A stretch of 49,013 nucleotides of DNA from Myxococcota bacterium (GTDB lineage: Bacteria > Myxococcota_A > Polyangia > Polyangiales > Sandaracinaceae): contig JAYZQJ010000107.1 of the NCBI GenBank assembly GCA_036149055.1, forward strand, positions 1-49,013. The letters run 5' to 3'. Within the stretch, counting starts at the first letter, position 1, and each line of letters opens with the position of its first letter. The notes under the pieces were generated by a model. It was not told where the DNA came from. It worked only from the letters and a program-made list of their open reading frames with translations, and did not search any database. The translations under genes were made by a program, and so were the position numbers. Shown one piece after another: positions 16,605 to 39,684 of this stretch.

Positions 16605-16619
16605 TGTAATTGAGTTGCA
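16605..16619. promoter_or_regulatory. Putative Zur/Fur-family operator
   Basis: AT-rich imperfect inverted repeat TGTAAT-TGA-GTTGCA about 30 nt upstream of the DUF1826/COG0523 zinc-starvation pair. Confidence 0.6.
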
Positions 16620-16649
16620 GGTACAGTCTGCGTGCGGTAGTGAGCCGGC

Positions 16650-17339: not shown

Positions 17340-17368
17340 CTCACCCACACGCAGACCCACGGAGTCTC

Positions 17369-18595: not shown

Positions 18596-18602
18596 GGCGC
18601 GG

Positions 18603-19394: not shown

Positions 19395-19513
19395 GCCCAC
19401 ACTCGCTGCAATCCCCGATCCGCCTCCGCGCCCGCGCCTCCGCCACTTCCGCGTGGCGCCTCGCCTCGCCCGGGGCAGGGGGCGACCGCTCGCGTGATCA
19501 GAACAAGATCGGA

Positions 19514-19756
19514 AACCTCCGGCGCGACCTGGCGATGTGATGGCCAACGCGTTCGGAGCCGGGACCGATGGTCGGGGCCGCTGCGAGCGCATCGCACCGG
19601 AGAAGCATCGTGAACATCGACCCCATCGAGCGCCCTCGTCCCTCCCGCCGCGTCCTCCGCGTCCACTTCAGGCCCCTCGATCTCGACGCGATCGAGAGGC
19701 GCGCCCTCAGCAACGTGCGCGAGTCGGTCCTCGCGGCCCTGCGCTTCGCCGAGGTG
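19514..19756 (+). repeat. 243-bp direct repeat, copy 1 (degenerate copy of the upstream region and 5' end of gene 22172)
   Basis: Aligns without gaps to 21544-21786, with 8 mismatches counted by eye. Confidence 0.95.
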
Positions 19757-21440: not shown

Positions 21441-21543
21441 GTCTGGGCAAGAAGGCTATCAGGTGCACGCGCGCCTCGCGCGATCGGCCCGGCGTGGAGC
21501 GGCGTGCCTCGAGCTGACGCTCAAGAAATCGAATCGTGTGCGC

Positions 21544-21786
21544 AACCTCCGGCGCGACCCGGCGATGTGATGGCCAACGCGTTCGGGGCCGGGACCGATG
21601 GTCGGGGCCGCTGCGAGCGCATCGCACCGGAGAAGCATCGTGAACATCGACCCCATCGAGCGCCCCCGTCCCTCCCGCCGCGTCCTCCGCGTCCACTTCG
21701 CGCCCCTCGATCTCGCCGCGATCGAGAGGCGCGCCCTCAGCAACGTGCGCGAGTCGGTCCTCGCGGCGCTTCGCTTCGCCGAGGTG
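21544..21786 (+). repeat. 243-bp direct repeat, copy 2
   Basis: Near-identical to 19514-19756. Confidence 0.95.
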
Positions 21787-22171
21787 GAGGCGAGGATCGA
21801 GTCCTCCCTCGAGCCAGCGCCGAGGCGCGACGCGTCCCCAGCCGTGCTCCACGCCACGGCGCCGCTCCAACCGTGATGTCGCTCTCCCGTGCCCTCCGCC
21901 GTGGTGAGGGGATGACGAGCGTGCCGAGCACGAGCGTCGCGGTGATCGTCGGGAGGCTGCACGGCCTCCCGGCGATCATCCACGCGGACGTTCCCGAGTC
22001 GGCCAGACGTCGCGGAACCCCGACCTCGCGACCGCATCACGCGGCCGGTGAGAGTTTCTTCGCCGCCGCAGGAAACCTCCGGCGCGACGGCGCGATGAAG
22101 GTGGCCAAAGCACTCGGGGGTGGGGTCGACGGTCGGGTCCAGCTGCGGGTGCACCGCACTGGAGAGCCATC

Positions 22172-22978
22172 GTGACCATCGAGTTCATCGACTTCATCCG
22201 CCCGCCCCGCCTCAGCACCGAGACGGGCATCCTGCTCGCCATCCGTCTGCTCAACTCCAAGCCCGTCGACCTCGACGAGGCCGAGAAGCGCGCCCTGCGC
22301 AGCGTGCGCAAGACGGTCCTCGAGACGCAGAGCGTCGGCAAGGCCCGCGCGCGGCTGCGTCCCGAGAACCTCAAGGACGAGGACGAGCGCTTCGACGAGC
22401 GCTGGGGCGCCCTCTACTCTCACCTCGAGGGCTGGGCGCGGCTGGAGAACGACCCGCGCGGGGAGCTCGCGCGGGCGCTCCTCGCGACCCTCTTCCCGGA
22501 CGGGCTCGTCTTCTTGACACGGTCCTACGGCGACGAGTGGGTGCAGTCGCAGGAGCGGCTGCAGCGCATCGAGGAGGAGGGCCTCGAGGAGGACCTCGTC
22601 TCCCTCGTGCACCCCGAGCTCCTGCGCGAGGTCCGCAAGGCGCACGACGCGCTCGGCGACGGGCTGGGGGTCGGCGACGAGCCGCTGCCGCCGCTCGAGA
22701 GCCGCGCCATGCTCGACGCGCTCCGCAAGCTCTCGCTCGCCATCAGCGACTACGCGCGCGTCCTCGCTGGCCGCGTGGAGCGCGGCGACGCCGAGAGCGA
22801 GCGTCGCTTCCTCCAGGCGATGGCCCCGCTCGAGGTCCATCGCGCCACCCGCGGCCGCGGCAGCGGCGAGGACGAGGTCGACCCCTCGGTGCCCCCGGCC
22901 GACGACGGCCCCGTCGTCGACGACGATCCCGCCGTGGACCGGCCCGTGCTCGACGAGCCCGTGCCGCCGGTCGGCTGA
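22172..22978 (+). CDS. Hypothetical all-helical acidic protein
   Basis: GGAG RBS with GTG start, strong GC3 bias, acidic Pro-rich tail; its 5' region is homologous to the two repeats. Confidence 0.8.
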   Translation: MTIEFIDFIRPPRLSTETGILLAIRLLNSKPVDLDEAEKRALRSVRKTVLETQSVGKARARLRPENLKDEDERFDERWGALYSHLEGWARLENDPRGELARALLATLFPDGLVFLTRSYGDEWVQSQERLQRIEEEGLEEDLVSLVHPELLREVRKAHDALGDGLGVGDEPLPPLESRAMLDALRKLSLAISDYARVLAGRVERGDAESERRFLQAMAPLEVHRATRGRGSGEDEVDPSVPPADDGPVVDDDPAVDRPVLDEPVPPVG

Positions 22979-23373
22979 GCTCCGCGCGAGCCTCCGGGCT
23001 CGCCAAACGACAGCAGGCCCGAATCCCGCAGCCTCGGGGTCTCGCAGATCGCAGCTTCGAGCGATCTCCGGGGCCTCGAGGCTGCCCTCGTTCATCGAGA
23101 AGAGCGCTTCACCCGACCTGGAGGTCGACCCGAACGAGGATCGGGCCGCGTGATGGGGGCCTCGACGTCGACCCGATCGGGCTCCGGGGCGGACGCCGGC
23201 AGCCCCGAGGTCGGGACCCGGCGCCCCGCAGAGGTTTCGAGGGTACGTCGTGGCTCGCGAATCGAGCCCGCTCCGCGTTCGGGGCACCCCGATGCTCGGA
23301 GAACGAAGGGAAACTCGGTGGACAGACATCACGTGACGCTACATCGTGCATCGGAGCCCGACCGCCCACCTCA

Positions 23374-23406
23374 GACTTGACGAAACCGCAAGTCGCGAGC
23401 AAATCT
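23374..23406 (+). promoter_or_regulatory. TA operon promoter with overlapping operator palindrome
   Basis: TTGACG -35-like box at 23377 inside the inverted repeat GACTTG-N9-CAAGTC (23374-23394), just upstream of ATG 23410. Confidence 0.55.
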
Positions 23407-23409
23407 CTC

Positions 23410-23688
23410 ATGAATGCCCCTCGAGCTTCGGCTGAAGTCCTCTCTGACGCTGCGTCGGCGGCGAGGTGCGGGAACGTGTACACCACGGACCACGCCAGGC
23501 GCCGAATGGACGAACGCAACGTTTCGATGCGTGACGTCCTGACCGCATTGCGGTCGGCAACACAGGCAAGATACGACGACGAGCGCGCGACCTGGAAGCT
23601 CACGGGCGGACAGGACGTCGATGGCGATGGGCTGGACGTCGTGATCAAGACCCCCACCCCCGGGGTCGTGGTCGTGACGGTATTCTAG
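23410..23688 (+). CDS. DUF4258-family putative toxin (RelE-like)
   Basis: 92 aa, T.HARRRM.ER.VS..DV, W...G.D.DG..L.VV, ends VVVTVF. Confidence 0.8.
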   Translation: MNAPRASAEVLSDAASAARCGNVYTTDHARRRMDERNVSMRDVLTALRSATQARYDDERATWKLTGGQDVDGDGLDVVIKTPTPGVVVVTVF

Positions 23689-23696
23689 GAGGAACG

Positions 23697-24197
23697 ATGC
23701 TGAACCAAGGCGACCCGTGCCCGCTCTGCGAAGCGGGGAAGCTGCAGCTTCGAATCCCGGAGCACCGCATCACCATCGGCGGCGTAGATGTGAAGGACCG
23801 CACCGCGACCGCGCTCGTGTGCGATGCGTGCGGCGAGGCCCTCATCACGGCCGCGCAGCGCACCCGCTACGAGCTCCGCGCCGTCGCGCTCATCCTTCGG
23901 GACGGGCGAAAGGTGAGCCCGTCCGTGCTTCGGGCCGCGCGCCGCGCGCTCGGGCTGAAGCAGTCCGAGCTCGCGCAGCTGCTGGAGACCACCGACTCCA
24001 CCATCTCCCGCTGGGAGAACGGCAAGGAGCCCGCTCGGCGTCCCGTGCAAATGGCGCTCGCCCACCTCGCCTCCGATGTGGAGCGCGGGGTGCTCGACCT
24101 CGAGGCGGCGCTCGAGCTGGCGCGGACGAGCCAGCCGCCCGAGCCGCCGTGCCTCGAGGTCGTCAAGCCCGGTCCTGAGCACGACGAAGCCGCCTGA
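23697..24197 (+). CDS. MqsA-like antitoxin (zinc ribbon + XRE HTH)
   Basis: AGGAGG RBS; CPLC...CDACGE zinc ribbon; LRAARRALGLKQSELAQLL....STISRWENG HTH. Confidence 0.85.
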   Translation: MLNQGDPCPLCEAGKLQLRIPEHRITIGGVDVKDRTATALVCDACGEALITAAQRTRYELRAVALILRDGRKVSPSVLRAARRALGLKQSELAQLLETTDSTISRWENGKEPARRPVQMALAHLASDVERGVLDLEAALELARTSQPPEPPCLEVVKPGPEHDEAA

Positions 24198-24274
24198 TCC
24201 GACGGGCGAGTACGAGAAGGCCGGCGGCCGAATCGGGCTTCCAGCCGCCACCATGGCATGGGGAGGACGGTGGG

Positions 24275-24826
24275 ATGGAACAGAGATCGCGGGGGGCCCC
24301 GGGGGCGTGGAGGACCTGGCGGTCTCACCCACTCGCCGCGTGCTTGGCCCTGCTCGTCTCGGCGCCGTCCGCCGCGTCTGCGGACGTGGTCGGCCCGCAC
24401 AGCTGCCCGCCGGGGGCCGTCGCGGGCACCTTCCATCACGGTCGCTATTGCCGTCCGTGGGTATGCACGAGTGATGACGACTGCGGCGGGATCATCCTCA
24501 GCGCGCCGGTGGGCACGACGTTCTCCTGCCGCGCGCTGCCCACTTGCCAGGCCGAAGTCGAGATGGAGACGCGCGACCGCGCGGGCCAGCCCGTCGAGGG
24601 CAGCGTGCGGGTGGCCTATGGTCCGTGCGAGTCGGAAGGGGTGAGCTGTGCGCGCGGCAGCTGTGTGCCCGGCCGCGTCTGTGTCGCCGATTCGTCGGGC
24701 CTCGGCGCCGGTCCGCGCGGAGGGGCCTGTGGAGCGTGCCGCGCGACTGGGGGGAAACCGAGCGGCGCGTGGTCGGTGCTGCCGGTCCTGGTGGGGCTTC
24801 TCGTCGTGACGTCGAGGTCTCGGTGA
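24275..24826 (+). CDS. Secreted Cys-rich protein with MYXO-CTERM-like tail
   Basis: GGAGG RBS, signal peptide ending ASA-D, many Cys, 'GACGAC' followed by a TM helix and a basic end. Confidence 0.6.
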   Translation: MEQRSRGAPGAWRTWRSHPLAACLALLVSAPSAASADVVGPHSCPPGAVAGTFHHGRYCRPWVCTSDDDCGGIILSAPVGTTFSCRALPTCQAEVEMETRDRAGQPVEGSVRVAYGPCESEGVSCARGSCVPGRVCVADSSGLGAGPRGGACGACRATGGKPSGAWSVLPVLVGLLVVTSRSR

Positions 24827-24871
24827 GCATCAACCGGAATCTCACGAACCCTCTCATTATCGCGGCCGAGT

Positions 24872-26122
24872 CTATCCTGCCCTGCCGCCAGGTCCTCCCC
24901 GCCGTGGTCGGAGTCGCCGCACCGCGAGCGCGAGCAAGAAGCAGCCGGCCGCGAGCGCGAGGCCGCGGGTCGCGCTGTGGGTCGAGCTCACTCGCAGCCG
25001 CGGCCGCGCAGGCGAGGGCGCGAGCCGGGAGGCCGCGCTCCCCCAACCGAGCTCGAAGCAACGCGCGGTCGGGCTCAGTGCGCTCATCGGGGTGTCGTCC
25101 TCGTCGAGCGGGACGCACTCGACGTCGACGACCCGGTCACCCTGCAGCTCCCGCGGGGGGACGCGCTCACCCGGCCGGTAGAGGCGGCGGGTGAGGACCT
25201 GGATCCGCCGCGCGTCCGCGAGATGTGAGACGGTTTGCAGGGAGCTGGAGGAGCGGGTGGGCCAACCCAGGAAGAGATGGCCCGAGGTCTCCATCGCCCG
25301 GGCTGCGCCTGCGAGGTCGGCCACCGTCCCGCGGTCGCCCACGAGCAGGGTGGCGTCGTGACGCGCGTCTCCCGCCCACACGAGGCCGCCATCGGTCCAG
25401 GCGCCGACCGTGCCCGGCAGCGAGCCCCCACGTCCAGGCGAGGCCACCTCGAGGTTCAGTCCGGCGCGCTCGGCCACGCGCTCGAGCTGGCTCGCCCGGT
25501 GGCGCCGCTCGCTCGAGGCGAGCCCGGCGAGGGAGAGGGCGCTCAGGAGGAACACGCTCACCACCGGGAGCGCGACCTCACGCGCCCCGCGTTGGCGAAC
25601 GAGGAGCGCGCCGCCGCCGGCGAGGAGCACGCCGGCGAGGAGATCCGCCCCCTCGAGCAAGGGCGCCAGCACCTCGAGGCCGGTCGCGCCGCGCGCGAGG
25701 GCGAGATCGGTCGCGTCCGACGCGAGGCGCGCGAGCGGCCAGCCCGAGAGGCAAGCACAGGCCAACCGCAGCCGGCGGCTGACCGACCAAAGCAGCGCCG
25801 TGGCCAGGGCCGCGCCCGCGATGGGAGCCCAGATTCGTCCATGGTACTCCGCGAGCCAGCCGAGCTCGTCGTACGCATCGGGGGCGGGACCGAGTGGGAT
25901 CAGCAGCTCTCCGACGACCAGCGCCGCGGCGGCCGTGAGCAACAGCGTGAGGTCGCGCGCTGCGGCGCGCCGATCGAGCCAGGCACCGACGGCGCAGCCG
26001 AGTCCGGCCAGCGCTGGGGCCACGCCGTGCAGGAGCCACTCGGTCCACGGCCAGCTGGCGCGCTCGACGGACACGGCGCCGAGACACCACGCCGCGAGGA
26101 TGAGCCACGCGCCGAGCTTCAT
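24872..26122 (-). CDS. Hypothetical multi-pass membrane protein
   Basis: Several hydrophobic segments at the N-terminus and a C-terminal TM with an Arg tail; start uncertain. Confidence 0.5.
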   Translation of the reverse strand: MKLGAWLILAAWCLGAVSVERASWPWTEWLLHGVAPALAGLGCAVGAWLDRRAAARDLTLLLTAAAALVVGELLIPLGPAPDAYDELGWLAEYHGRIWAPIAGAALATALLWSVSRRLRLACACLSGWPLARLASDATDLALARGATGLEVLAPLLEGADLLAGVLLAGGGALLVRQRGAREVALPVVSVFLLSALSLAGLASSERRHRASQLERVAERAGLNLEVASPGRGGSLPGTVGAWTDGGLVWAGDARHDATLLVGDRGTVADLAGAARAMETSGHLFLGWPTRSSSSLQTVSHLADARRIQVLTRRLYRPGERVPPRELQGDRVVDVECVPLDEDDTPMSALSPTARCFELGWGSAASRLAPSPARPRLRVSSTHSATRGLALAAGCFLLALAVRRLRPRRGGPGGRAG

Positions 26123-26172
26123 GCCCAAGGGAGGCGACGGCCCGGCGGGTGCTGCGCTACCCTCGACGTCCG

Positions 26173-26832
26173 ATGTCAACGATTTGGGCACCATTCCGAG
26201 CAGAGGGCGTGGGGCGTTGGCAAACCGAAGCGTACTCCAGCGGCTGGAGTCACACGATCCACTTCAGCTCATTCGCCGGTCTCCTCGATACGATGCGCAC
26301 CCGCCACGGGCTCCGCGGCAACGTGTCGCGCCTCGGGATCGTCGCACACGGCGATCAGGACGGACAAGTGCAGCTGGAGCGCCCTCTCCGTCCCGGATCT
26401 GTGAGCCGGTTCGAGGGTGAGTGGAGGCGGCTGAGGGACTACTACCTCGAGCCGACGGCGCAACTCGTGTTTTTCAGCTGTATCGCCGGCGCTGGCACCG
26501 AGGGCAGTCGCCTGCTCGTCGAGATCTCTCGCCGTCTTCCCGGACGCACGATCATCGGGTTCACGGTCTCGGGCGAGACCTCAGCATCGGAGAACCTGTC
26601 CGCCCTGTCGGCTCAGACCCCGGGACAGGTTCGAGAAGCGCCCCACGGGCACGGCTCCGGCCGCCCGGGTCGCGCCGGTCTGCTCGCCCCTCATCACGTC
26701 GCGGCCAAGTGGGCGCGCAACGGCGCGGTCGTCCGCATACCACCGCTCGAACGCGCGCCGGGGAATCGCTGTGGCAATCCGGAGTGCCCTGGGCACGCGT
26801 TGCCCATCCACTTCTGCGAGGGGTGGGGGTGA
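26173..26832 (+). CDS. DUF4347-like protein (His-Gly...Ser-Cys motif)
   Basis: LGIVAHG...LVFFSCIAG.G..G..LL..IS..LPG..I.GF; C-terminal Cys/His cluster. Confidence 0.55.
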   Translation: MSTIWAPFRAEGVGRWQTEAYSSGWSHTIHFSSFAGLLDTMRTRHGLRGNVSRLGIVAHGDQDGQVQLERPLRPGSVSRFEGEWRRLRDYYLEPTAQLVFFSCIAGAGTEGSRLLVEISRRLPGRTIIGFTVSGETSASENLSALSAQTPGQVREAPHGHGSGRPGRAGLLAPHHVAAKWARNGAVVRIPPLERAPGNRCGNPECPGHALPIHFCEGWG

Positions 26833-26851
26833 CGGTCCTTCGACGGGCGTC

Positions 26852-29164
26852 CTACGCGTGGTCGCTCGTCTCCAGCTGCCTCTCCAGCCAGGCGAGGTCG
26901 GTCTCGAGCTTCTCGCGGCGCGCGCGCTCTCGCGCGAACAGCGCGTCGGTCTTGCGCAGCAGGAGGGTGTACGGCCTGCCCTCTCGTCGGGTCGTGTGGG
27001 TGACCGGGAGGTCGTGTTGGTCGCACTCCCGATGGATGTGCTGGCGCTTGGCCTTGGCGAGCGGCCAGGCGAGGAAGCGTGTCTCGCGGTCCGCGAGGAA
27101 CTCCCCGAGCTCACGGCAGAGCCCGCATCCACACGAGAGCTTCGCGTCGATCGCCCAGTCATCGGGATCACGAATCGGGACCGAGAGCACGCGACGGATC
27201 GCCTTGGCGAGCCCCCGGGTGGCTTTGGGGGCGCCAGCGCGTCTCCACTCGGCGGGGCTCGTCGCCTCGCGCGCCGCGCGCAGGACGTCGACGGCGAAGT
27301 GCAGGCCACCGGGCTCGCGGCTTCCCTCGACGAGGCCGTCGCGGACCGAGCGGGCGACATCCGAGGCGCCGGAGCGGGTCGCCGCGATCCAAACGGCGGC
27401 CTGCGTCTCGCGGTGGGACCCGAGCGCGTCGGTCGCTTGCTCGGCCGAGTGCGCACTATCGAGTGCGGAGCGGATCTCCTCGGCGACGTGCTCGACCTCG
27501 GCCGCGACGCGCGCGCGGAACCAGCCGACGACCGCGCGGTCCGCGGGGAGCGCGGCCGCGATCGCGGGGAGCGCGAGCTGCCACGTCGACCGGTCGCAGC
27601 GCGCCCAGCCTCCCCTCCGATCTCCCCACGCCGCGAAGCGCGCCTCGAGCCACTCCGTGCCGTAGCGCTCGAGCAGCTCGAACAGCGCGGATGGCACCGC
27701 CACGGCCTGGAGCGAGAGCGGCGCGACCCAGCTCGAGGCGAGCTCGGGGTCGTCGAGCGCGCTGGCGACGCGCAGCACGTCGGCGGCCCGCGCGTCGACC
27801 GCGGGCCCCGCGGACCAGTAGGGCAGGATCCGGCTCACCCGCCTGCGGAGCTCGGGGCGATCATCCAGCGCCTCCAACGCGGAGCGAACGGCGTAGAGGG
27901 GGTCTCGCTTCGCGCGCACGATGAAGTCGTTCGCGCGTGGCCAGAGCACGACGGCGGCGCGGCGATACCACCGATCGACGGTGTCGCCCCAGTTGCCCAT
28001 GTAGCCCTCGTGCTCGACCGCATAGGGGGTGAGCTCGTTCGTCGGGCGCGAATAGCAGAGCTCTCCCGGCTCGACGGCGGTCGGGGGAGCGTCCAGCGGG
28101 CGGTCGTCCACGTCGACCCACTCGTCGAGCGACACCGAGGCGTCGTGCAGCTCGATCAGCGGGGGGTGCTCGTCCGGCTCGACGGGGCGAGCGTACTCGG
28201 GGCCGCGCCATCCGCGGGAGTAGCTGTCGTACTCGGGCTCACAGCTCCACTTCTCGAACACCTCGGCGCTCGCGAGGCGCACCTCGAAGCCGCTGGCTGC
28301 GGACACGTCGCGGAGAAGCGCCGCGCGCTTGGCGTCCGCGCCCTTCAAGCGCCTCCAGCTCAGGCTCTGCGGCGTGTACTCGTGGTCGAGGAGAACCACG
28401 AGTCGGTCCGGACACGCCTCCCGCCCTCGCCAGTCGATGGGCACCGGCGTTTCGAAGTGATCTTTCAGGAGCTCGCGCAACGCGTCGGTCGTGCCTCCGT
28501 CGGGGGCGGCGTGCTCGGGGGCGCCTTCGAGGGTCAACGCGTAGGTCAGGGCTACGCGGTTGCCGCGCTCGACGGGGCGCACCTCGTGCTCACAGTCGGC
28601 GTAGAACGCGATGAACGTCAGCTCCCTCTTGGAGCCGCCGCCGACCGTCACCTCCTCCCCCTCGTGGCGGATGACCGAGGCGCCACCCTCGAAGGTCGAG
28701 GGCACGAGCACGACCATCGTCGCGACCATCCCGCTGACCTTCTCTGCATCCCGGTGTGGCAGAAAGAACTGACCCTTCTCGTAGACGAGCATGTCGTGGA
28801 GGTGGGCCTTCAGCCGCGTCCCCGCCGGGAGGCCCAGCTCGCGGTGAGCGCGCTCGAGTGCCGGGGCCATCGTCTTGCGCCACCGGTGCCCGAGCTTCAC
28901 GCGGCTCTTGGCGATCACCCAGGTGTCCCGCACGCTTCGATCGAGCAAGGTCTCTTCGCCGCGCCCGAATCGCGCGGGTCGAGCCACCGAGCGGAGCGTC
29001 CGGACCGTGGCCGCGGGTACCGGGAGCCGGAGAGCACCGACGCCGCGGATCTCCAGCGCGAGGTCACCCGCGGGCGCGCGCCAGTGCGCAGCGAAGGGGC
29101 CGCGCGCCGCGGAGCCGCCCAACAGATCGTGCAGCTCCTCGTGGATGACGGATTCGTCCTGCAT
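26852..29164 (-). CDS. Large 2OG-Fe(II) oxygenase-domain protein
   Basis: LVYEKGQFFLPHRD (HxD), AFYADCEHEVRPV..G.R, EGYMGNWG, C-terminal CGCGLC. Confidence 0.88.
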   Translation of the reverse strand: MQDESVIHEELHDLLGGSAARGPFAAHWRAPAGDLALEIRGVGALRLPVPAATVRTLRSVARPARFGRGEETLLDRSVRDTWVIAKSRVKLGHRWRKTMAPALERAHRELGLPAGTRLKAHLHDMLVYEKGQFFLPHRDAEKVSGMVATMVVLVPSTFEGGASVIRHEGEEVTVGGGSKRELTFIAFYADCEHEVRPVERGNRVALTYALTLEGAPEHAAPDGGTTDALRELLKDHFETPVPIDWRGREACPDRLVVLLDHEYTPQSLSWRRLKGADAKRAALLRDVSAASGFEVRLASAEVFEKWSCEPEYDSYSRGWRGPEYARPVEPDEHPPLIELHDASVSLDEWVDVDDRPLDAPPTAVEPGELCYSRPTNELTPYAVEHEGYMGNWGDTVDRWYRRAAVVLWPRANDFIVRAKRDPLYAVRSALEALDDRPELRRRVSRILPYWSAGPAVDARAADVLRVASALDDPELASSWVAPLSLQAVAVPSALFELLERYGTEWLEARFAAWGDRRGGWARCDRSTWQLALPAIAAALPADRAVVGWFRARVAAEVEHVAEEIRSALDSAHSAEQATDALGSHRETQAAVWIAATRSGASDVARSVRDGLVEGSREPGGLHFAVDVLRAAREATSPAEWRRAGAPKATRGLAKAIRRVLSVPIRDPDDWAIDAKLSCGCGLCRELGEFLADRETRFLAWPLAKAKRQHIHRECDQHDLPVTHTTRREGRPYTLLLRKTDALFARERARREKLETDLAWLERQLETSDHA

Positions 29165-29227
29165 CGCGGCGCAGCATAGCCGGGAGCCCCGTCGATGGAG
29201 CCTGCGTCCGCGCTATGCTCGCTCGCC

Positions 29228-29989
29228 ATGCGCGCTCGTGCCTACGTGACCGACCTCCAGCACTTTCTCGACGAGGAGGGCCGCCTGGTGGGCGGCGGGC
29301 CGGGCAAGCTCGGGGCGTACCTCGCGTGTGTCGCCGAGCTCGGCTCCTTGCTGCCCCTCGGGGCGGCCGGCACGACCGGAGCCCGCTGCGCGCTCCCGGG
29401 CCAGCGCGCGTGCGGCGCGCCACTGTGGCTGCACCGGCAAGCGCACGACACCCTCGCCTGGGAGTGCGGCGCGTGCGGCGCGCGCGGTCAGATCCGAGGC
29501 TGGGCCGGGACTCGGTTCGACCTGTCGGGGGTGGCGGCCGCCAGCGGCGACGACGAGGGCGACGTGATCTTGCCGCACGACGAGTGGCTCGCGGCGCGGC
29601 GCCGGATCGAGTGTGCGCCCGCCCTGCGCTTGCGGCTCGCCGCGATCCTCGACGTCGACGGAGGCTTCGTCGCGTTCACCGCCGACTACGGCGAGATGCT
29701 GGAGCTGGTCCGGCGGAGCCGGGAGGCCGCCGACGCAGCGCGGGGCAAGGACCGTCGCCTGCTCGATCGCTTCTCGGCGTTCGTCGAGGGCGCGTCCACC
29801 CACCGAAGCGGCTTCACCGACCCGGTGCTCGACCTGGCGGACGCGCTGGAGCTGGGAGCGTCCGAGGAGGTCTTCGAGCATGCGCGTCGGAGCGCGAGGA
29901 CCGCCGGCCGCGACGTCGTGCGTGAGTCCGACCTCGTGGACGCGCAGCTCGCGCTCGCGGCGCGCCGCGGCGGCCACACGCTGCACTGA
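29228..29989 (+). CDS. Hypothetical protein with N-terminal Cys zinc-binding motif
   Basis: TDLQHFLDEEG, C...C...WECGACG..G.I.GW; coherent coding-like composition. Confidence 0.65.
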   Translation: MRARAYVTDLQHFLDEEGRLVGGGPGKLGAYLACVAELGSLLPLGAAGTTGARCALPGQRACGAPLWLHRQAHDTLAWECGACGARGQIRGWAGTRFDLSGVAAASGDDEGDVILPHDEWLAARRRIECAPALRLRLAAILDVDGGFVAFTADYGEMLELVRRSREAADAARGKDRRLLDRFSAFVEGASTHRSGFTDPVLDLADALELGASEEVFEHARRSARTAGRDVVRESDLVDAQLALAARRGGHTLH

Positions 29990-29996
29990 GCTTTTT

Positions 29997-30223
29997 GGAG
30001 GGTTTGGTGCAAACCCTCCCCCCATGGGGCAAAGCGCCAATGGGGCCCCCCTCCCGACTCCGCCGGCGCTTCGCGCTCGCGCCGCGACCCCAGCGACGGG
30101 GCGCTGGGGGCCCTGCGGCTCGCGCTCGCGCTGCGCGCTCGCTGGCCGCTCGCTGCCGCGGGATCGAACACAGGTGGTGGTGGTCCGTGCGGCGACCTCG
30201 CTGCGCTCGTCGCTTGCCGTCAT
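29997..30223 (+). repeat. Palindromic intergenic repeat element (REP/MITE-like), copy A
   Basis: Perfect stem GGAGGGTTTG-GTG-CAAACCCTCC; 30128-30223 matches the reverse complement of 48918-49013. Confidence 0.8.
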
Positions 30224-31275: not shown

Positions 31276-31300
31276 GCCGCGCGGCGGTCGCGGCTTTTTT
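31276..31300 (+). terminator. Rho-independent terminator
   Basis: GCCGCG-N7-CGCGGC stem followed by TTTTTT, 28 nt after the stop at 31248. Confidence 0.65.
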
Positions 31301-31380
31301 GCTTTCCCGATCCGCGTGGGCATTCTCCCGACAACGCGACGCCGGGGGCGCTGGGGCGGCGCGGTGTGGGTGAGTAACAA

Positions 31381-32067
31381 GTGTTTACATCGAACGAGCA
31401 GAGTCAATCCTGGACCCTCTGGCGTCTCGACTGGGCGTCCCTCTGCCCCGTCGCGCTCGGCGGGGGAGTGACGGCGGCGCCGATCGGCGTGGAGGACGCC
31501 CTCGCGTTCATGGGGGCGCACTACGCCGAGGCGTTCCGGTCCGACGCCGCCGATCACCGCTTCTTGCCGGATCCGATGACGCCGGCGAAGCGGCGCTTCC
31601 TCGCGCAGTCGGACCGGATCGCGTTCCGCGACGGCGACCGGGTGGTCGGCCTCCTGGTCGGCAACCCGGTCGACTGGAGCACGTACTACTGGCGCACGGT
31701 CGCGTTCCTGCCCGAGTACCAGGGGCGGGGCCTGCTCGCGGCGCTGCTCGCGCACACCGACCGCCTGATGGCCGCCCACGGGGTGGTCCGGGTCGAGGGC
31801 GAGTGCGCGCCGACCAACTACCGGCAGCTCCGATTGCTGCTGCGACTGGGCTACGTGGTGACCAGCACGGTCACCAGCGAGCGCTGGGGCGCGATGCTGC
31901 GCCTCACGCGCTTTCTCGACGAACAGGCGGAGGAGGCGTTCGTGGATCGATACAGCAAGGACGCCGGCCTGCCGCGTGGACCATCCCCCGAACCCCAGCC
32001 CCGAGGAGGACGTCATGAAGAAGTTCGCGACCGCGTGTTTCTGAGCGCTGCGAGGAGCGCGCGATGA
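31381..32067 (+). CDS. GNAT-family N-acyltransferase
   Basis: AFLPEYQGRGL acetyl-CoA-binding motif, 'P.N...LLLRLGY'; the last ~30 aa are low-complexity and overlap the small ORF. Confidence 0.85.
   Translation: MFTSNEQSQSWTLWRLDWASLCPVALGGGVTAAPIGVEDALAFMGAHYAEAFRSDAADHRFLPDPMTPAKRRFLAQSDRIAFRDGDRVVGLLVGNPVDWSTYYWRTVAFLPEYQGRGLLAALLAHTDRLMAAHGVVRVEGECAPTNYRQLRLLLRLGYVVTSTVTSERWGAMLRLTRFLDEQAEEAFVDRYSKDAGLPRGPSPEPQPRGGRHEEVRDRVFLSAARSAR
32015..32044 (+). CDS. Putative 9-aa precursor peptide MKKFATACF
   Basis: GAGGAGG SD at 32003-32009, 5 nt before ATG AAG AAG TTC GCG ACC GCG TGT TTC TGA; in a different frame from the GNAT; directly upstream of the HO-like and YcaO genes. Confidence 0.6.
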   Translation: MKKFATACF

Positions 32068-32759
32068 TCGCCGCGGCCCTGAAGCGCGACATCGAGCGCT
32101 ACGCGGCGGGCATGCACCGCACCAACCCGCTCTACGTGGGGGCGGCCACCGGGCGGCTCACGCCCGAGGTGGTCGCCTACTACCTGAGCAACGTGCGACA
32201 CCTCGTGCAGCACACCCCGCTGCACCTCGAGCGGGCGCGTCGGCGCGCTCGCGCGCTCGGCCGGGACGACCTGGCCGCGCACTTCGCCGAGAAGCTCGTG
32301 GAGGAGCACGGCCACGATCGCTGGGCCGACCAGGATCTCGCGCTCCTCCGCGAGCGCTTCGGGAGCGAGGCGGTCGGCGCGCTCGCGCCCGCGCTGCTCA
32401 CCCAGCTGCGCTGGATCGAGGCGCTGATCGACCGCGATCCGGCGCTCTACCTCGCCTACATCCTCTTCGCCGAGTACCTCATCGTGCTGATGGGGCCGAC
32501 GTGGCTGGCGCTGATCGAGGAGCGCTGCGGCATCCCGCGGCGCATGTTCTCGGTGATCGGCAACCACGCCGAGCTCGACGCGGAGCACGCCGACGAGGGG
32601 CTCGACGCCATCGACGCGATGGTCACCGACCCCGCGCTGATGCGACCGATGCGCGAGACGACGGCGCGGGCGATCGCGCTCTTCGAGCGCTGGTCGGGCG
32701 AGGTCGTCGCCCACGGATACCGGGAGCCGGAGTCATGGACCGCCGCCTCCTGCGCCTGA
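32064..32759 (+). CDS. Heme-oxygenase-like diiron oxidase (HDO; PqqC/CADD/TenA-like fold)
   Basis: EEHGHDRW, AEY and HAELDAEH metal-ligand pattern; ATGA coupling to the GNAT stop. Confidence 0.82.
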   Translation: MIAAALKRDIERYAAGMHRTNPLYVGAATGRLTPEVVAYYLSNVRHLVQHTPLHLERARRRARALGRDDLAAHFAEKLVEEHGHDRWADQDLALLRERFGSEAVGALAPALLTQLRWIEALIDRDPALYLAYILFAEYLIVLMGPTWLALIEERCGIPRRMFSVIGNHAELDAEHADEGLDAIDAMVTDPALMRPMRETTARAIALFERWSGEVVAHGYREPESWTAASCA

Positions 32760-33766
32760 GCCGAGCGCTCCCGCTCCCCGCCGGGTGGAGCGCGCCCGAG
32801 CTCTTCGCCGACACCGTCGCCCTCGAGGGGGCGCGCGGGCGGGTGGAGGTGCGCCGGGCCGGCCTCCAGGCGCGCGGCCCCGACGGGACCGAGGCCACCG
32901 GCAGCGCGGCCGAGCTCGACGGGGATCCGCTGCCGCGGGCCTGGTACGAGCTGCTCGAGCGGGTGGCCATCGTCGAGGCGACCGGAGCCCCGCGGCCCCG
33001 GGTCGACGCGGGCGGCCACCCGACCGGCGCCTTCCACGTGTCGGCGCCGGCACGGGGTAAGGGCGCGCGGCGGGCGGCCCGCTCCAACGGGGTCGCGCTG
33101 CACCGCTCGTTCGAGGCGGCCCGCGACGCGGCTCGGCGCGAGCTGGTCGAGCGCGATCTGGTGCTCGGCAGCTGGTACGGGGAGCTCCCCCTGCGCCGCG
33201 GCGTCTGCCCGGCGCGGCTCGCGCCGTTCACCGGTCACGACTGGGAGGTCCGGCTGGTGCGGGACCCCGACGGGGTCGCCCCGGATCTCGTGGCCGCGGT
33301 GGTGGTCGGCTTCCCCCGGCGGAGCACCGTCCCCCTGGCCCGCGGGTTCGCCGCTGCCCCCGACGCCCACGCCGCGGCGGACGCGGCCGCGCGCGAGGCC
33401 CTCCAGAACCTGGCGTTCCTCTGGGACGAGCCGGTGCCCGTGGCCGCGCCGACCCCGTCGCCGACGCCGTTCTTCCACCTGGACTACTACCTGGTCCCCG
33501 CCCACCACGAGGCGCTGCGGGCCTGGCTCGACCGGGACGCCGCGTCGTCGCGACCGCGACCCCGAACCGGACCCCGAACCGGACCCCGAGCCGGGCGTCG
33601 ACCCGGGCGCACGGCGGGCGCGGTGAGCTACGTCGACTTGACGCCGGCCTGCCTCTCCGGGGCGGCGCGGGTGGTGCGGGCAGTGGCAACATCGACCCGG
33701 CCGCTGGTGTTCGGGCCGGCCGCGCCGCCCGTCGCCCCGACTTTCTGCGTGCATCCGATCGCCTGA
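32735..33766 (+). CDS. Compact YcaO-family protein
   Basis: GSAA...RAWYELLER, SNGVALH, A.RELVERD ATP-binding motifs, A.REALQ, C-terminal HPIA; GGAG RBS. Confidence 0.8.
   Translation: MDRRLLRLSRALPLPAGWSAPELFADTVALEGARGRVEVRRAGLQARGPDGTEATGSAAELDGDPLPRAWYELLERVAIVEATGAPRPRVDAGGHPTGAFHVSAPARGKGARRAARSNGVALHRSFEAARDAARRELVERDLVLGSWYGELPLRRGVCPARLAPFTGHDWEVRLVRDPDGVAPDLVAAVVVGFPRRSTVPLARGFAAAPDAHAAADAAAREALQNLAFLWDEPVPVAAPTPSPTPFFHLDYYLVPAHHEALRAWLDRDAASSRPRPRTGPRTGPRAGRRPGRTAGAVSYVDLTPACLSGAARVVRAVATSTRPLVFGPAAPPVAPTFCVHPIA
33558..33593 (+). repeat. 12-bp tandem repeat x3 within YcaO
   Basis: GACCCCGAACCG GACCCCGAACCG GACCCCGAGCCG. Confidence 0.85.
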
Positions 33767-33808: not shown

Positions 33809-36800
33809 GTGCAGGTAGGGGAGCCGCGCATCCGGATCGACGAGGTCGAGCTCCACGAGGAGCTCGGCTGGGGCGCGACCTCCGTCGTGCGTCGCGGCGT
33901 GCGCCGCGGGAGCTCGGTCGCGGTCAAGATCGCGCGCGGCGGCGGGCGGGCGGCGCGCTGGTTCCGTCGCGAGGCCGCGGCCCTCGCCCGCGTCGATCAC
34001 GAGGGCTTGCCGCGGGTGCTCGAGGTCGGCGAGTCGGACGGAGTCCCGTGGCTGGTCATGGAGCTCGTCCGGGGGCCGACGCTCGCCGAGCGGCTCGCCG
34101 AGGGGCGGCCGCCCGAGGGCGAGGCGCTCTCCCTGGCTGTCGCGATCGCCGACACGCTCGACGCGGTGCACCGGCGCGGCGTCGTGCACTGCGACGTCAA
34201 GCCGCAGAACGTGGTGCTCGACGGGGGCGACCGCGTGCGGCTGGTGGACTTCGGCTTCGCGACCCCCGAGCGGCTCTCGCCCGAGGGCGCCGGCACGCCG
34301 CCCTACGCGGCCCCCGAGCAGACGCGCGGCGCCCGCCTCGTCGACGCCCGCACCGATCTCCACGCGCTCGGCCGCGTGTTGCTGGAGTGCCTGACCGGCG
34401 ATCCGCTCGCCGACCTCGACTCGGTCCCCGCGCCGCTCGCGGTGGTCCTCGGGGGGTTGCTCGCGCCCGAGCCCGCCGATCGCTACCCGAGCGCCCGCGC
34501 GGTGGTCGGCGAGCTGGAGCGCCTGCGCGCCGGCGAGGCGCCGCTCGGCCCGGCGTCGCCGCTGCACCCCGCCGTCGAGGCGTTCGCGCTCGTCGGCCGG
34601 GACGCCGAGCTGGCCCGGCTCCGCGAGCTCTGGCGCGGCAGCAGCGCGGGCTGGGGCGAGGTGGTGCTGGTCGAGGGCCCGCGCGGCGCCGGCAAGAGCC
34701 GCCTCGTGCGCGAGCTGGTGCGGGAGATCGAGGCCGAGGGCGGCCGCGTCATTCACCATGCTTGCGCCGAGAACGACCCGCGGCCGCTCGCCGCGCTGCG
34801 CGCGATCTTCGAACAGGCGGCCGCCGCCCTCCGGCGCGACGAGGCCGCCCGGGCCGACCTGCGGGGGCGCCTCGGGCCCGACCTCGCGGCGTTCGCCGGG
34901 GTGCTCTGCCCGGAGCTGGCCGAGCTGCTCGGGGCCGACGCGAGCTACGACGCCGGGCTCGGGGCCGAGGCCTTCACCCAGGCGGTCGCCGACCTCGTGC
35001 TCGAGCTCGCCGCGTCCCTCGGCCCGCTCTGCGTGGTGGCCGACGACGGGCAGTGGATGGACCGCACCAGCGCCGAGGTGCTGACCCGGGTGGCCGATCG
35101 CATCGGCGCGACCCGTCTCCTGCTCGCGGTCGCGACCCGGGCCGGCGAGGGGCGCACGAGCCCCGCGCTGCCGCGGCTGGTGTTGACCCCGTTCGACGGC
35201 GGGCGGACGGCGGCGCTGGTCTCCGCCCACCTCGGGCACGCGGTGAGCGAGGAGCTGGTCGCCTGGGTGGCGCGGGTCTCCGACGGCACGCCGCTCGGCA
35301 TCGTCGAGGTGCTCGACGCGATGCTCGACGCGGCGACCCTCCGCCCGGTGGACGAGGTCTGGCGCTTCGACCGGGCGCGGGCTGAGCAGATGCACCTCCC
35401 GCGCGGCGCCCTCGCCCTGATGGAGCGCCGGGTGGGCGCGCTGCCCCCGGCGGCGCGGCGCGTGTTCGAGTCGGCGGCGCTGCTCGGGCGCCGCTTCGAC
35501 GCCGAGGTGCTGGCCGACCTGCACGCGCTCTCGCTCGACGATCTGGAGTTCGCGCTCGCCGACGCGCGCCGGGCCGGCCTGGTGGAGGCGGACGCGCCGG
35601 GCGGCCACCGCTTCGTGCACGACGCGGTGCGGGAGGCGCTGCTCGCGGGGCTGGACGACGAGACCCGCGCGACCCTCAACCAGCGCATCGCGCGCTGCCT
35701 CGACGGCCGCGGCGGCGCCTCGCCCTTCACCCTGGCCGCGCACTACGCGGCCGGGCGCCCGCGGGAGGATCGCGGCCGGCTGCTCGACGTGGCCGAGGAC
35801 GCGCTCGCGCAGCTCATCGAGGACCACGACGACGAGGCGGCGCTCCGGCTCTTCGACGCGATCGCGGCCTCGATGCCCGACGCGGTCTCCCGCCTCGAGG
35901 TCTTCGCGGGGGAGGCGGCGACCCGCCTCGGTGACGGCAAGCGCGCGCTCCGGCACTTCGAGAGCGCGCTCGACTCCACGCTCGCCCCCGATGAGCGGGC
36001 GCGGCTGCGCGGCCGCCGCGCCTGGGTGCACCAGCAGGCCGGGGACGCCGACGCGGCCTGGGCCGAGCTCGAGCGCGCCTTCTACGAGCTGGGCGAGCGC
36101 ATGCCGGTGGAGAGCCCCCGCGCGGTCGCCGGCTCGGCGTGGCGGCTCGCCCGGGCCGAGGCGGGCCCGCCGGCCAGCGGGCGCGAGGCGGAGCGGCTCT
36201 CGGTGCTCTGCGACCTCCACTACCAGAACGTCCGGCTCGGCGAGGAGTACGAGAAGCCGCTCCGGCTGATCCAGAGCACCGCCCGCGCCTACGCGCTCTC
36301 GCGCCGCCTGCCTCCGTCGGCCGCCCGGGCCCGGAGCGAGGCCCTGGTCGCGACCGCGCTCGCCATCCTCGGCCGGCGAGACGCGAGCACGCGGCACGCC
36401 GAGGAGGCGATGCGGATCGCGCGGGGGCTCGGGCGACCTCCGGTGCTCGCCTTCTGCGAGCAGATGCGCGCCATGGCCAGCTACTTCGGGGGCGACTTCG
36501 ACCGCGGCCTCGATCGGCTCCACGACGCCTTCGGGCGTCACGAGCGCTGGATGGAGGCGGCCGAGCTCTGCCTCTTCGCCGTTGGCGTCTACACCATCGA
36601 GGCGATCCGAGGTCAGTATCGCTACGCGCCGGCGATGCTCCGCCGCAGCCTCTCCCGGGCGCGCCGTCTGCACGCGCCGCCGCCGGCTCTGGTGCTCGCC
36701 GAGCACTGCGAGCGCGCCTCCGAAGCGACGCTCACCGGGGTGGCTGCGCTCGCGCCGCGCGCGGCCCTCTCGGGCTTCAACCGTACCGCGGCCTGGGGAC

Positions 36801-39001
36801 CGATCACTCACGCGTTCCTGGAGCTCGACGAGCTCGGGCCGGAGCTCGAGGCGCACCTGGCGGAGTTCGACGCCCTGGGCCTCTCGCCGCGCACCGCGCA
36901 CCCGGTCGTGTTCGAGCACTACGTCTCGCTCGCGTACATTCGCCTGCGCCAGGCCACCCGCGGCCCCGACCGACGCGCGCCGCTGCGGGCCCTGAAGCGG
37001 GCGCTGAAGGACGTGCGCGCCGCCGCGCGCTTCCCGCTCTTCCGCGCCCACGCGCTGGTGCTGGAGGGCGCGGTGCGCTGGCTCGAGGGCGACGCCGGCA
37101 AGGCGCGCGCGCTCCTCGCCGAGGCCGACGCGATCGCCGACGCGGAGAGCTGCCTCTGGGCGCGCTTCGAGGCGGAGCGCCTCCGGGCCCACATGCTGCG
37201 CGCCGAGGGGCGGCGAGACTCTGCCCGGCAGCGGGCCTCGCTCGCGCTCGCGATCGCGCGGGAGGCGAAGGCGGCGGCCTGGGAGCGGCTCGTGCGCGGC
37301 GAGTTCGAGCTGCCGCGCGCGTCGAGCGCCCGCGGCACCAGCATCGCCACCTCGCAGGCGTCGCATCGCCGGCAGCTGCAGACGCTCTTGCACATCTTCG
37401 AGGTCGCCACCCGGCAGCCGGCGGTGGAGGAGCAGGGGCGCCTCTTCCTCGACGAGGTGATGGACTCGCTCGCCGCGACGCGCGGCCTCCTCGTGTTCGA
37501 CGCGGAGTCCTCGCGGGACGCCACCCTCCTCACCGCGCGTCAGCGCGCGGCCGAGTGGCCCGATCCGCCCCCCGAGGTGCGCGCGCTGATCGACGGCGCG
37601 CGCGAGGCCGGCATGCCGCGGAGCAGCGGCGAGTCGGACGACGCGCCGCGCGCGGTGGCCGTCCCGCTCTGGCTCCGGGGCCGGGTGGTCGGCGGCGTCT
37701 ACCTCGAGCGCGACGGCGACGAGCCTCCCTTCGAGGAGGAGGACTTCGACGTCCTCTTCGCGCTCTCCTACCAGGTGTCGGTCGCGCTCCAGCTCGCGCG
37801 CACGATGCGGGACCGGGAGCGCCTCGAGCAGTCGCTGCGGCAGGCGCAGAAGATGGAGGCGATCGGCCGGCTCGCCGGAGGCATCGCCCACGACTTCAAC
37901 AACATGCTCACGGTGATGGTCGGCACGATCCAGCTCCTCTCGCGCAAGGTCGACTCGGCCGACGCGGGGCGCGAGGTGGACATGCTCGCGCAGGTCACCG
38001 ATCGCGCGAGCCGGCTGACCAACCAGCTCCTCGCCTTCTCGCGGCAGTCGAGCACCCAGCTCGAGGTCTTCGACGTCGACGACACCCTCGAGGCGCTCGC
38101 GCCGATGCTGCGCCGCCTGATCGGCGATCAGGTGCGCGTGGTGCACGAGCGCGGCGAGGGCGGAAAGCGCGTGCACCTCGACCGCGGGCTGCTCGACCAG
38201 GCGGTGGTCAACCTCGCCCTCAACGCGCGCGACGCGATGGAGGGCGGCGGCCGGCTCGTGCTGCGCAGCCGGGGCGAGGCGGGCCGGGTGCTGATCGAGG
38301 TGGAGGACGACGGCGCCGGCATGAGCCGCGAGGTCCGCGAGAACGCGCTCGAGCCGTTCTTCACCACCAAGGAGCGGGGCAAGGGCACGGGCCTCGGCCT
38401 GGCGATGGTCTACGGCTTCGTGGAGCAGTCGGGGGGCACGCTCGAGATCGACAGCGAGCTCGGGCGGGGCACCCTCATCCGCATCGCCTTCCCGGAGACC
38501 GAGGAGAAGCCGGCGCTCCGCTCGCTGGTGATCTCCAACTCCAAGGAGCCGGAGGCGTTCCGGGCGACCCGCTCCGGCGAGATGCTGCGCACGACGGTGC
38601 TCGTGGTCGACGACGACCCGCTGGTGCTCCAGACCCTCGCGCTCGGCCTCGAGCCCGAGGGCTACCGGGTGGTCGCCGCGGAGACGCCCGACCAGGCCCT
38701 CCGCCTGGCCGACGCGCTCGACCGGGTCGACGTCATCGTGAGCGACGTGATGATGCCCGACATGAACGGGCCGGAGCTGGTCGACGCCCTCGCCGAGGTG
38801 GTGCCCGAGGCGGCGGTGCTCTTCGTGTCCGGTTACGCGGACACCGAGCTCCGTGAGACCATGGACCTGAAATCACGGAGCTTTCTCCGGAAACCGTTCC
38901 GCCCGGAGCAGCTCTGCGAGGCGGTCCGGGACACGCTCAGGCGGCGCCGCGAGTCCGACGGAATCCAAGCTGAGCGGATTCCAGTCGAAAATGGGACTTA
39001 A
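33809..39001 (+). CDS. Hybrid Ser/Thr kinase - AAA ATPase - GAF - histidine kinase - receiver protein
   Basis: [25 protein letters not shown] '[16 protein letters not shown]'; H-box [48 protein letters not shown]. Confidence 0.92.
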
Positions 39002-39072: not shown

Positions 39073-39684
39073 ATGAAGATCGAAGTGCAGGGCGTGTTGT
39101 TGGTCCACGAGGACTCGAGCTGGTGCCGCCGGGTGGCGCGCAAGCTCGGGGACGCCGACGTCGACGTGCACGTGGCCACGTCGATCGCGGGCGCGCTCCG
39201 CATCGTGGAGAGCGCGCGCCCCGAGGTCGCCCTCGTGGACCTCTCGACGCTGCCCACGCCGGACTGCTTCCGGCTGGTGCGCAGCCTGGCCACCGCGTCG
39301 CCGGCCCCCGCGATCGGGGTGTGGAGCCCGCGCCTGCTCGCTCACGAGGCCTTCCTCCTCGGGCAGCTCGGCGTGCGGCAGCTGCTCGCGGCGCGCCCGC
39401 AGCCGCAGGACGTCATGCGGCACGCGCACGCCCTGCACGAGACCCGGCTCGACCCGGTGCCGCACCTCCGGGCGTTCGCGCTGCACGCCGGCCCCGTCCC
39501 CGAGTCCGTCCAGGCGATCCGGGACATCATCCTCGACCAGGTGCTCGGCGCGGTGGACGAGAGCCACTCGGCGGCGGCCGAGATCCTCGGCGTGACCCGC
39601 CAGGCGGTGCGGCAGTCCAAGCGCGGCAAGACGGGCACGCTCACCCGCGCGCTCGACTCCGATAGCGACGCGGACGTCGGTTGA
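39073..39684 (+). CDS. Atypical response regulator with Fis-type HTH (RegA/PrrA-like)
   Basis: VLLVHED, ALVDL receiver-like region; 'SHSAAAEILGVTRQAV' HTH. Confidence 0.7.
   Translation: MKIEVQGVLLVHEDSSWCRRVARKLGDADVDVHVATSIAGALRIVESARPEVALVDLSTLPTPDCFRLVRSLATASPAPAIGVWSPRLLAHEAFLLGQLGVRQLLAARPQPQDVMRHAHALHETRLDPVPHLRAFALHAGPVPESVQAIRDIILDQVLGAVDESHSAAAEILGVTRQAVRQSKRGKTGTLTRALDSDSDADVG

Follow-up and report, generated by a model that had tools for sequence, protein, structure and literature searches.

A nine-residue micro-ORF as a very probable RiPP precursor in a candidate pheromone cassette of Myxococcota

Genes and features of the locus

The window, the whole 49,013-nt stretch of Sandaracinaceae DNA analyzed here, carries a cassette in the order GNAT, peptide, heme-oxygenase-like diiron enzyme (HDO), stand-alone YcaO and hybrid kinase, with the following features.

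31276..31304, + strand: terminator-like hairpin with a T run, closing the upstream gene (consensus scan only; two overlapping sites found, 0.5 expected)
31381..32067, + strand: GNAT acyltransferase, start uncertain (PF00583, E 6e-10), upstream of HDO in 50 of 54 loci
32003..32009, + strand: Shine-Dalgarno (SD) sequence GAGGAGG of the putative precursor gene, read in the sequence; a loose SD-like word precedes 73 of the 78 distinct DNA versions of homologous ORFs
32015..32044, + strand: putative precursor peptide gene MKKFATACF, with basic leader M-K-K-F and presumed core A-x-x-[C/S/T]-hydrophobic
32064..32759, + strand: heme-oxygenase-like dimetal oxidase, HDO (PF14518, E 3e-7)
32735..33766, + strand: stand-alone YcaO of 343 aa with no fused E1 or RRE domain and the C-terminus HPIA (PF02624, E 4e-11)
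33809..39001, + strand: hybrid kinase of 1730 aa with Ser/Thr kinase, AAA/STAND ATPase, TPR-like solenoid, GAF, His kinase and receiver parts, predicted cytoplasmic; candidate receptor
36389..36814, + strand: variable segment (residues 861-1002) of the TPR-like region of the kinase, holding 18 of 26 strain differences
39073..39684, + strand: protein encoded behind the kinase, with a weak receiver-domain match (PF00072, E 5e-4, under the curated threshold), cassette membership uncertain

The micro-ORF (32015-32044; codons after ATG: AAG AAG TTC GCG ACC GCG TGT TTC TGA) sits inside the last 53 nt of the GNAT reading frame, the tail of which reads through the peptide gene in the +1 frame as GPSPEPQPRGGRHEEVRDRVF and ends in a stop at 32067 that overlaps the ATG of HDO at 32064. 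The initial annotation had described a strong SD with a 5-nt spacer before the ATG at 32015 and a G or C at the end of 7 of the 8 following codons, and these details are all present in the sequence. The cassette probably starts its own transcript behind the terminator-like hairpin; no sigma-70 promoter was found by a consensus scan. One metatranscriptome contig (run X17) spans 31300-32894, but strand is absent and DNA is possible in this library, so expression is not claimed. Farther upstream, 26852-29989 encodes a 770-aa protein with a 2OG-Fe(II) oxygenase-like N-terminus (judged by eye) and a divergent 264-aa protein without a Pfam match, and an AT-richer stretch at 14000-30000 suggests a variable island.

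Conservation of the micro-ORF across loci

Homologous loci were collected by HDO searches of genome contigs (7 loci), of related genomes (9 of 61), of metagenomes (the best 80 of 109 loci) and of the phylum (4 of 401 genomes), and were counted if they had an HDO homolog at E<=1e-20 and at least 130 nt upstream. This excluded eight weak HDO matches (L006, L007, L014-L019; E above 1e-20) and 12 loci with less than 130 nt upstream, of which four still carry the motif; three duplicates (L008, L100, L101) were also removed. Named relatives of the cassette proteins belong to Sandaracinaceae and Polyangiaceae. A matching ORF of 9-13 residues was detected upstream of HDO in 78 of the 81 loci, far above the background of 31 motif matches in 19.77 Mb (own genome, both strands; 0.0008 per 500 nt), with a search motif that was composed after the first loci had been viewed and that fixes only K/R, F/Y and A/S, leaving the last four residues free. 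The three loci in which the motif is absent (L053, L076, and L096) have no YcaO downstream.

Among the 71 distinct peptides the second-last residue (-2) is Cys in 34, Thr in 25 and Ser in 12, hence one of these three in 71 of 71, while Cys, Ser or Thr make up only 15% at -3 and 32% at -4, where 12 and 10 kinds of residue occur, respectively. The last residue is Phe (30), Leu (21), Ile (11), Val (5), Met (2), Ser (1) or Ala (1). On a quick tree of HDO with 72 rows, the -2 residue switches 24 times among Cys, Ser and Thr and never leaves this set. The 78 distinct DNA versions use all four Ala codons (GCA 21, GCT 20, GCC 19, GCG 15; Ser in 3), three stops (TGA 56, TAA 13, TAG 9) and two starts (ATG 63, GTG 15). 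Such synonymous variation in the peptide frame means that conservation acts at the level of the protein, and the micro-ORF is, on this comparative evidence, almost certainly a real gene, as had been proposed.

An independent set was obtained from the class of the Oligoflexales genome G449, in which HDO was present in 15 of 131 genomes. The motif lies upstream in 10 of the 17 new Oligoflexia-class loci, with Cys, Ser or Thr at -2 in 10 of 10, and eight of these peptides are new. Misses in this later set include L124, with the peptide nowhere in the genome, L131, with only GNAT and HDO, and L126, where the upstream DNA is lacking. The invariance of Cys/Thr/Ser at -2 reads as the signature of a YcaO azoline substrate.

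Relation to the GNAT reading frame

Alignment of GNAT homologs places the end of the conserved GNAT core near 31960, about 55 nt before the peptide, at an F-x-R-Q-F-C-like word. Searches with the GNAT returned generic acetyltransferases and no substrate class. The position of the GNAT stop was compared across 69 loci: 26 have it ahead of the peptide, 30 have it in a 4-nt overlap with the peptide start, and in only 13 does the GNAT frame read through the peptide. The expectation that this region is conserved in the peptide frame only was thus supported, and the nesting in the GNAT tail, on which the initial annotation laid stress, does occur here but is a secondary feature of the system.

Read-through is common in the closest relatives: of 42 further GNAT clusters from close relatives, 31 have a tail of this kind, with the word EEV(R/C) recurring in the GNAT frame. 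Its recurrence would favor an ORF that arose by chance, or a GNAT tail that is itself conserved and was viewed in the wrong frame, a reading that is refuted by the 56 of 69 loci in which the ORF lies outside the GNAT, by its presence where no GNAT exists at all, and by synonymous variation that follows the peptide frame; EEV(R/C) is best read as the shadow of MKKFA. Ten of the 13 nested loci show an overlap between GNAT stop and HDO start, across seven different spacings of 46 to 94 nt, which suggests that the open frame is perhaps kept for coupling: the closest clade may keep it for GNAT-HDO translational coupling and not for its residues. One GNAT record (protein P0332) ends in frame with the whole precursor peptide, either as a GNAT-precursor fusion or through a lost GNAT stop.

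HDO and YcaO

Regarding HDO, the ligands E81, H84, E137, H168, D172, and H175 are invariant in 49 sequences and form the full 3His/3carboxylate set that, together with the heme-oxygenase fold, marks the HDO superfamily in the sections used of PMC13108848. These sections also list decarboxylation, desaturation and N-oxygenation as reactions of the class, with substrates binding directly to Fe1. The closest solved structure is 3DDE, the match to CADD is weak, and a search of the ESM Atlas returned PF14518 clusters only.

YcaO is encoded downstream of HDO in 58 of 63 loci. Its ATP-site motifs E78/E81/R82 and E142/E145/R146, which we take to be catalytic, are invariant and were placed by a computed alignment to TruD, LynD and MusD, its best sequence relatives. 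The model (pLDDT 92) has McbD as its best fold match (Z 21.5, rmsd 4.0, 292 aligned residues), aligned to the last residue, and the C-terminus aligns with LynD as well. Both enzymes look active from their sequences and models. A YcaO cyclodehydratase with an intact ATP site and a Cys, Ser or Thr in every core of both sets are features of linear azol(in)e-type peptides (LAPs). The C-terminal PxP motif ascribed to azoline-forming YcaO (PMC7136475, in part) is found in true form in 8 of 43 C-termini, which mostly end HP(I/V)A, with H at -4 in 43 and P at -3 in 42; the H-P-I-A end in place of P-x-P appears as a point against plain LAP membership. No E1/ThiF-like partner, RRE or flavin dehydrogenase was found in the cassette, E1/ThiF and dehydrogenase were also absent from the flanking genes scanned, and no TfuA was found among cassette and flanking genes scanned.

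A peptide with Thr at -2 occurs without an adjacent YcaO at two loci, L068 and L094, which keep GNAT, peptide and HDO, and one genome has, besides a complete locus, a second one that lacks YcaO. Some lineages can dispense with GNAT: several Oligoflexia-class cassettes lack it, and it was not found in G449 (a genome whose completeness is not given) by a search that matched the controls G000 and G448. Over 33047-33060 and 33533-33600, the YcaO of the window differs in two ways: it is without four residues that are present in four other runs and in L020, and it has an R/P/G-rich repeat insert at about residues 273-300, modeled with low confidence, that varies between strains.

Copies and forms of the precursor

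Tandem precursor genes were detected in L089 and L091 (three each) and in L139 (five). In three loci a precursor gene lies on the strand opposite to HDO, divergent or convergent; the search pattern for these copies fixed the -2 codon, so that they are no test of the -2 rule. L125 encodes a multi-core precursor, 57 aa long, in which S-P-E-A-like linkers separate six A-x-x-[CS]-F/S units; it lies directly before HDO and YcaO, and its six units point to a core of about five residues.

A cis-acting leader or stalling peptide governing HDO translation through a downstream hairpin would account for the position of the peptide directly before HDO with a hairpin in between, a feature that 42 of 77 loci have 3' of the peptide stop, compared with 10 of 77 control segments. 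It is nevertheless extremely improbable, as tandem copies, opposite-strand and convergent copies and the multi-core form would be unable to act in cis and exclude a cis leader, and spacings range from 8 to 262 nt.

A gene-encoded precursor beside modifying enzymes, with a leader and a variable core, is what characterizes a RiPP, and this arrangement is found in the 78 of 81 loci and in the tandem and multi-core forms. From its conservation and context, MKKFATACF is very probably an ultrashort RiPP precursor for HDO and YcaO. The earlier reading as a real ORF is supported to this extent, although it missed the main point, namely that the peptide would be the substrate gene of the HDO-YcaO cassette behind it.

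Two forms stand out. The multi-core precursor (L125, also L138:7270-7395 in G517) lies between a 7TMR-DISM histidine kinase and HDO-YcaO and is the best clue to the length of the mature product. In L139:8790-9301 (G523) and L089:2214-2407, five and three precursor copies, respectively, are followed by a hairpin, HDO, YcaO and a SAM methyltransferase with no adjacent GNAT or kinase, perhaps a methylated variant.

Kinase neighbors

In 33 of 40 first-set loci, a hybrid kinase domain is encoded behind the cassette. This kinase shows a single hydrophobic stretch and no membrane domain, and its residues 690-1190 are modeled as a TPR-like solenoid (pLDDT 94) with fold matches to Rap-peptide (Z 15.8) and NprR (Z 14.0) amid many unrelated TPR proteins, a likeness that on the model appears generic. 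At L111 and L094 the hybrid kinase is absent and a 5-TM kinase with an OmpR-type regulator is found instead. In the Oligoflexia-class set, 7TMR-DISM kinases are present at L138, L141, L143, L144, and L140 (cut by the contig end), other kinases at L145-L147 and a receiver protein at L142, while L139, with its five precursor copies, has no kinase beside the cassette. These Oligoflexia-class partner kinases are membrane proteins with extracellular 7TMR-DISMED2 domains.

Histidine kinases occupy 7 of 20 slots adjoining Oligoflexia-class cassettes compared with 3 of 81 other genes of the same regions, a count in which kin are not independent and for which the profile missed one non-adjacent kinase-like protein. 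Together with the 33 of 40 first-set loci, this corresponds to the agr-type arrangement of a sensor histidine kinase beside precursor and maturase. In 11 of 34 loci, the genes closest upstream include one for a response regulator or of LuxR type, a figure that has no control set. No conserved transporter or exporter, protease or peptidase, or immunity gene was found among the flanking genes scanned (32 of 95 in the Oligoflexia-class set). The surroundings of the cassettes are otherwise unrelated between loci, and the sensor is what stays.

Alleles within species

A strain that is 97.7% identical in DNA encodes TGTF as compared with TACF here. Peptide alleles were also read from GNAT tails, which hold the peptide in another frame, and amount to four in 13 records of this species and three in 14 of a sister species. 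The 18 of 26 kinase differences in residues 861-1002 (a segment chosen after viewing the data) were counted against a 99%-identical strain, and the sister species is dimorphic in the stretch and helices that match this segment.

In this species the tail of the window type goes with one kinase allele (the window and a 15065-nt contig) and the TGTF tail with the other (61908- and 18767-nt contigs), a co-variation of two records against two in which two pairs are linked only through equally long contigs. The sister species has one and the same peptide tail with both kinase haplotypes, and a second tail as well with one of them, pairs being made via neighboring accession numbers, accession prefix or matching contig size; this uncoupling does not support a one-to-one lock-and-key at the variable segment there. 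In run X2, contig breaks fall at two places, the peptide core and the variable segment of the kinase. Run X8, which lacks the indel pattern of the TGTF allele, was considered as the contig of kinase P0106 and rejected, since it carries a letter absent from P0106.

Proposed pathway

The conservation of the micro-ORF suggests that the peptide is translated from its own SD. YcaO with ATP is then likely to cyclize the Cys, Ser or Thr at -2 onto the carbonyl before it, so that one thiazoline or (methyl)oxazoline is formed, in this strain a thiazoline, and an azol(in)e at -2 is the probable outcome given the residues accepted there. HDO may oxidize the C-terminal part, either by decarboxylating the last hydrophobic residue to an enamide or by converting azoline to azole in place of the missing flavin dehydrogenase. 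Decarboxylation has been suggested to help YcaO act at a C-terminus in daptides (10.1101/2025.07.11.664356, preprint, in part), and with this precedent and the two YcaO-less loci that keep GNAT, peptide and HDO, an order in which HDO acts before YcaO would fit. Housekeeping peptidases might trim the basic leader to about A-x-x-azol(in)e-hydrophobic, with GNAT, where present, acylating the new N-terminus; this is the weakest step.

The small hydrophobic product could pass membranes without a dedicated exporter and be read by the neighboring histidine kinase, here probably via the TPR-like region, with feedback on transcription, a step that we hold to be somewhat probable. Three unrelated types of sensor histidine kinase and at least four peptide alleles in one species suggest an agr-like pheromone in Myxococcota and Oligoflexia-class genomes. 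That the cassette makes and senses a peptide pheromone, with MKKFATACF as its ultrashort RiPP precursor, is favored to a modest degree, as is sensing of the product by the neighboring kinase in particular. The chances are evenly balanced for the broadest form of the proposal, a widespread peptide quorum sensing of Gram-negative predators (Myxococcota and Oligoflexia-class Bdellovibrionota) in which a YcaO without partner and a diiron HDO would convert a precursor of 9-10 residues to a penta- or hexapeptide pheromone with an azol(in)e cap and strain-specific alleles, to be read by interchangeable receptors that include the TPR region of giant Ser/Thr-His hybrid kinases, with a new HDO chemistry on a ribosomal peptide.

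Should the product prove to be a pheromone, myxobacteria and Oligoflexia would have a peptide signal akin to agr, and a candidate ligand would be at hand for large STAND/TPR hybrid kinases and some 7TMR-DISM kinases. As RiPPs, the peptides would define a family invisible to gene callers and rank among the shortest precursors for a YcaO, recognized without an RRE or E1 partner; the HDO reaction on a peptide is testable with a synthetic 9-mer, and about 80 natural precursor variants form a ready substrate panel.

Comparison with known systems

Azoline-forming YcaOs convert Cys, Ser and Thr to thiazoline, oxazoline and methyloxazoline, for which an E1/ThiF partner and a flavin dehydrogenase are usually required (PMC7136475, in part). 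The cassette resembles LAP pathways in its Cys/Ser/Thr precursor, in a YcaO of the McbD/LynD fold and in that no macrocycle is expected, and the LAP goadsporin is N-acetylated according to the same sections. It differs from them in a precursor of 9-10 residues with a single modifiable site, in having HDO instead of E1/ThiF, RRE and flavin dehydrogenase, and in a sensor kinase that replaces export and immunity genes. The thiovarsolins (varA, varY, varT, varO) offer the only pair of a YcaO with a heme-oxygenase-like enzyme found in the literature search, VarO being a precedent for such an enzyme in a YcaO RiPP, and, as portrayed in parts of PMC6511847, they share short cores from a repeating precursor, release without a dedicated protease and N-acetylation. 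However, VarY and TfuA make thioamides, while here TfuA is lacking and Cys/Ser/Thr is invariant, and VarO desaturates Arg, which is not conserved in the present cores.

The features compared for agr/AIP and RRNPP systems (Rap-Phr, NprR-NprX) are those of the families. In agr, AgrB is the processing enzyme and the thiolactone-forming Cys stands five residues from the end, and RRNPP receptors are stand-alone TPR peptide receptors with an HTH or three-helix N-domain. Both resemble the present cassette in that a single locus encodes a very small precursor, the enzymes that modify it and the sensor cognate to it, as well as in their allelic cores, and RRNPP also in the TPR fold of the candidate receptor. 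In contrast, the hosts here are Gram-negative, the chemistry would be that of azoline and HDO rather than an AgrB thiolactone or an unmodified peptide, AgrB, an exporter and an Opp link are lacking, the receptor type is exchangeable, and the TPR solenoid is embedded in a 1730-aa kinase. No match to AgrB was found in the cassette or the flanking genes scanned, and the nucleophile is second-last. Shp/Rgg features were taken from section 22 of PMC11002830.

Partial likenesses also exist to daptides with DapY, where YcaO acts near the C-terminus after decarboxylation, to bottromycin, with stand-alone YcaOs that have no partner, and to the Itf pathway, where ItfA ends in Ile-Thr-Phe as do some of the present peptides (PMC11002830, in part). 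As far as the sources used describe them, these pathways have other enzyme sets (NAD-dependent decarboxylase and transaminase; radical SAM; transporters) and much longer precursors. The cassette is thus one of azoline-RiPP-like chemistry in an agr-like layout, and a member of neither the usual LAPs, the thioamitides, agr nor RRNPP. A full-text literature search, with most subscription journals and all supplements outside its scope, found no description of it; the sections used of PMC13185094, PMC8719888 and PMC11002830 hold nothing on the present system, and the HDO list of PMC13185094 and the YcaO tables of genome-mining papers may contain these proteins.

Alternative explanations

Regarding the role of the product, the same biosynthesis could yield an effector, such as an antibacterial for predation, a metal binder or an enzyme inhibitor, with the kinase only switching the cassette on by another cue. 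Tandem copies and the multi-core precursor suggest that the product is required in quantity, the sister species shows no coupling of peptide and kinase alleles, and regulators are commonly found next to biosynthetic genes, yet there is no conserved exporter or immunity gene, one core has recruited three unrelated sensor types, and -3 and -4 vary freely even within a species, which fits a private signal better than a fixed target; an effector is unlikely, though it deserves consideration. Since HDO requires O2 and Fe(II) and YcaO requires ATP, the level of the mature product might also tell the kinase of the same cell about its oxygen, iron or energy state. The hybrid kinase without a membrane domain and the missing exporter agree with such an intracellular reporter, which is quite improbable in view of the Oligoflexia-class membrane kinases with their extracellular DISMED2 domains and of several alleles per species, unnecessary for this purpose.

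Regarding the chemistry, YcaO could catalyze a reaction other than azoline formation, such as amidine formation, MusD-like backbone cleavage or a daptide-like ring closure on a C-terminal group made by HDO, or it could be HDO that requires the beta-nucleophile. The non-canonical end of 35 of 43 YcaOs, MusD among the three best sequence matches, the Thr at -2 retained in YcaO-less loci and the cyclization of decarboxylated C-termini by daptide YcaOs (10.1101/2025.07.11.664356, in part) all lean this way. As Cys, Ser and Thr, which interchange freely here, are exactly the residues that azoline-forming YcaOs accept (PMC7136475, in part), and the model aligns with McbD and LynD through the C-terminus, these chemistries are very unlikely, and azoline formation is preferred.

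Variant cassettes

Three genomes contain two cassettes each, G504 (L118, L129), G515 (L115, L131), and G525 (L123, L130), which are unlike in make-up (with or without GNAT, YcaO or peptide) and have different kinases; two unlike cassettes in one genome suggest that parts may act in trans. At L053, HDO and a hybrid kinase occur without GNAT or YcaO, and a six-codon ORF, V-K-M-I-A-M, with a strong SD and no Cys, Ser or Thr lies ahead (L053:70-90), perhaps a derived system with HDO as the sole peptide-modifying enzyme. A second PF14518 enzyme is encoded upstream of the cassette at L082:1883-2500, and an extra GNAT together with an aminopeptidase P at L034:2616-3194; aminopeptidase P is also present in L030, and these are candidates for trimming of the leader.
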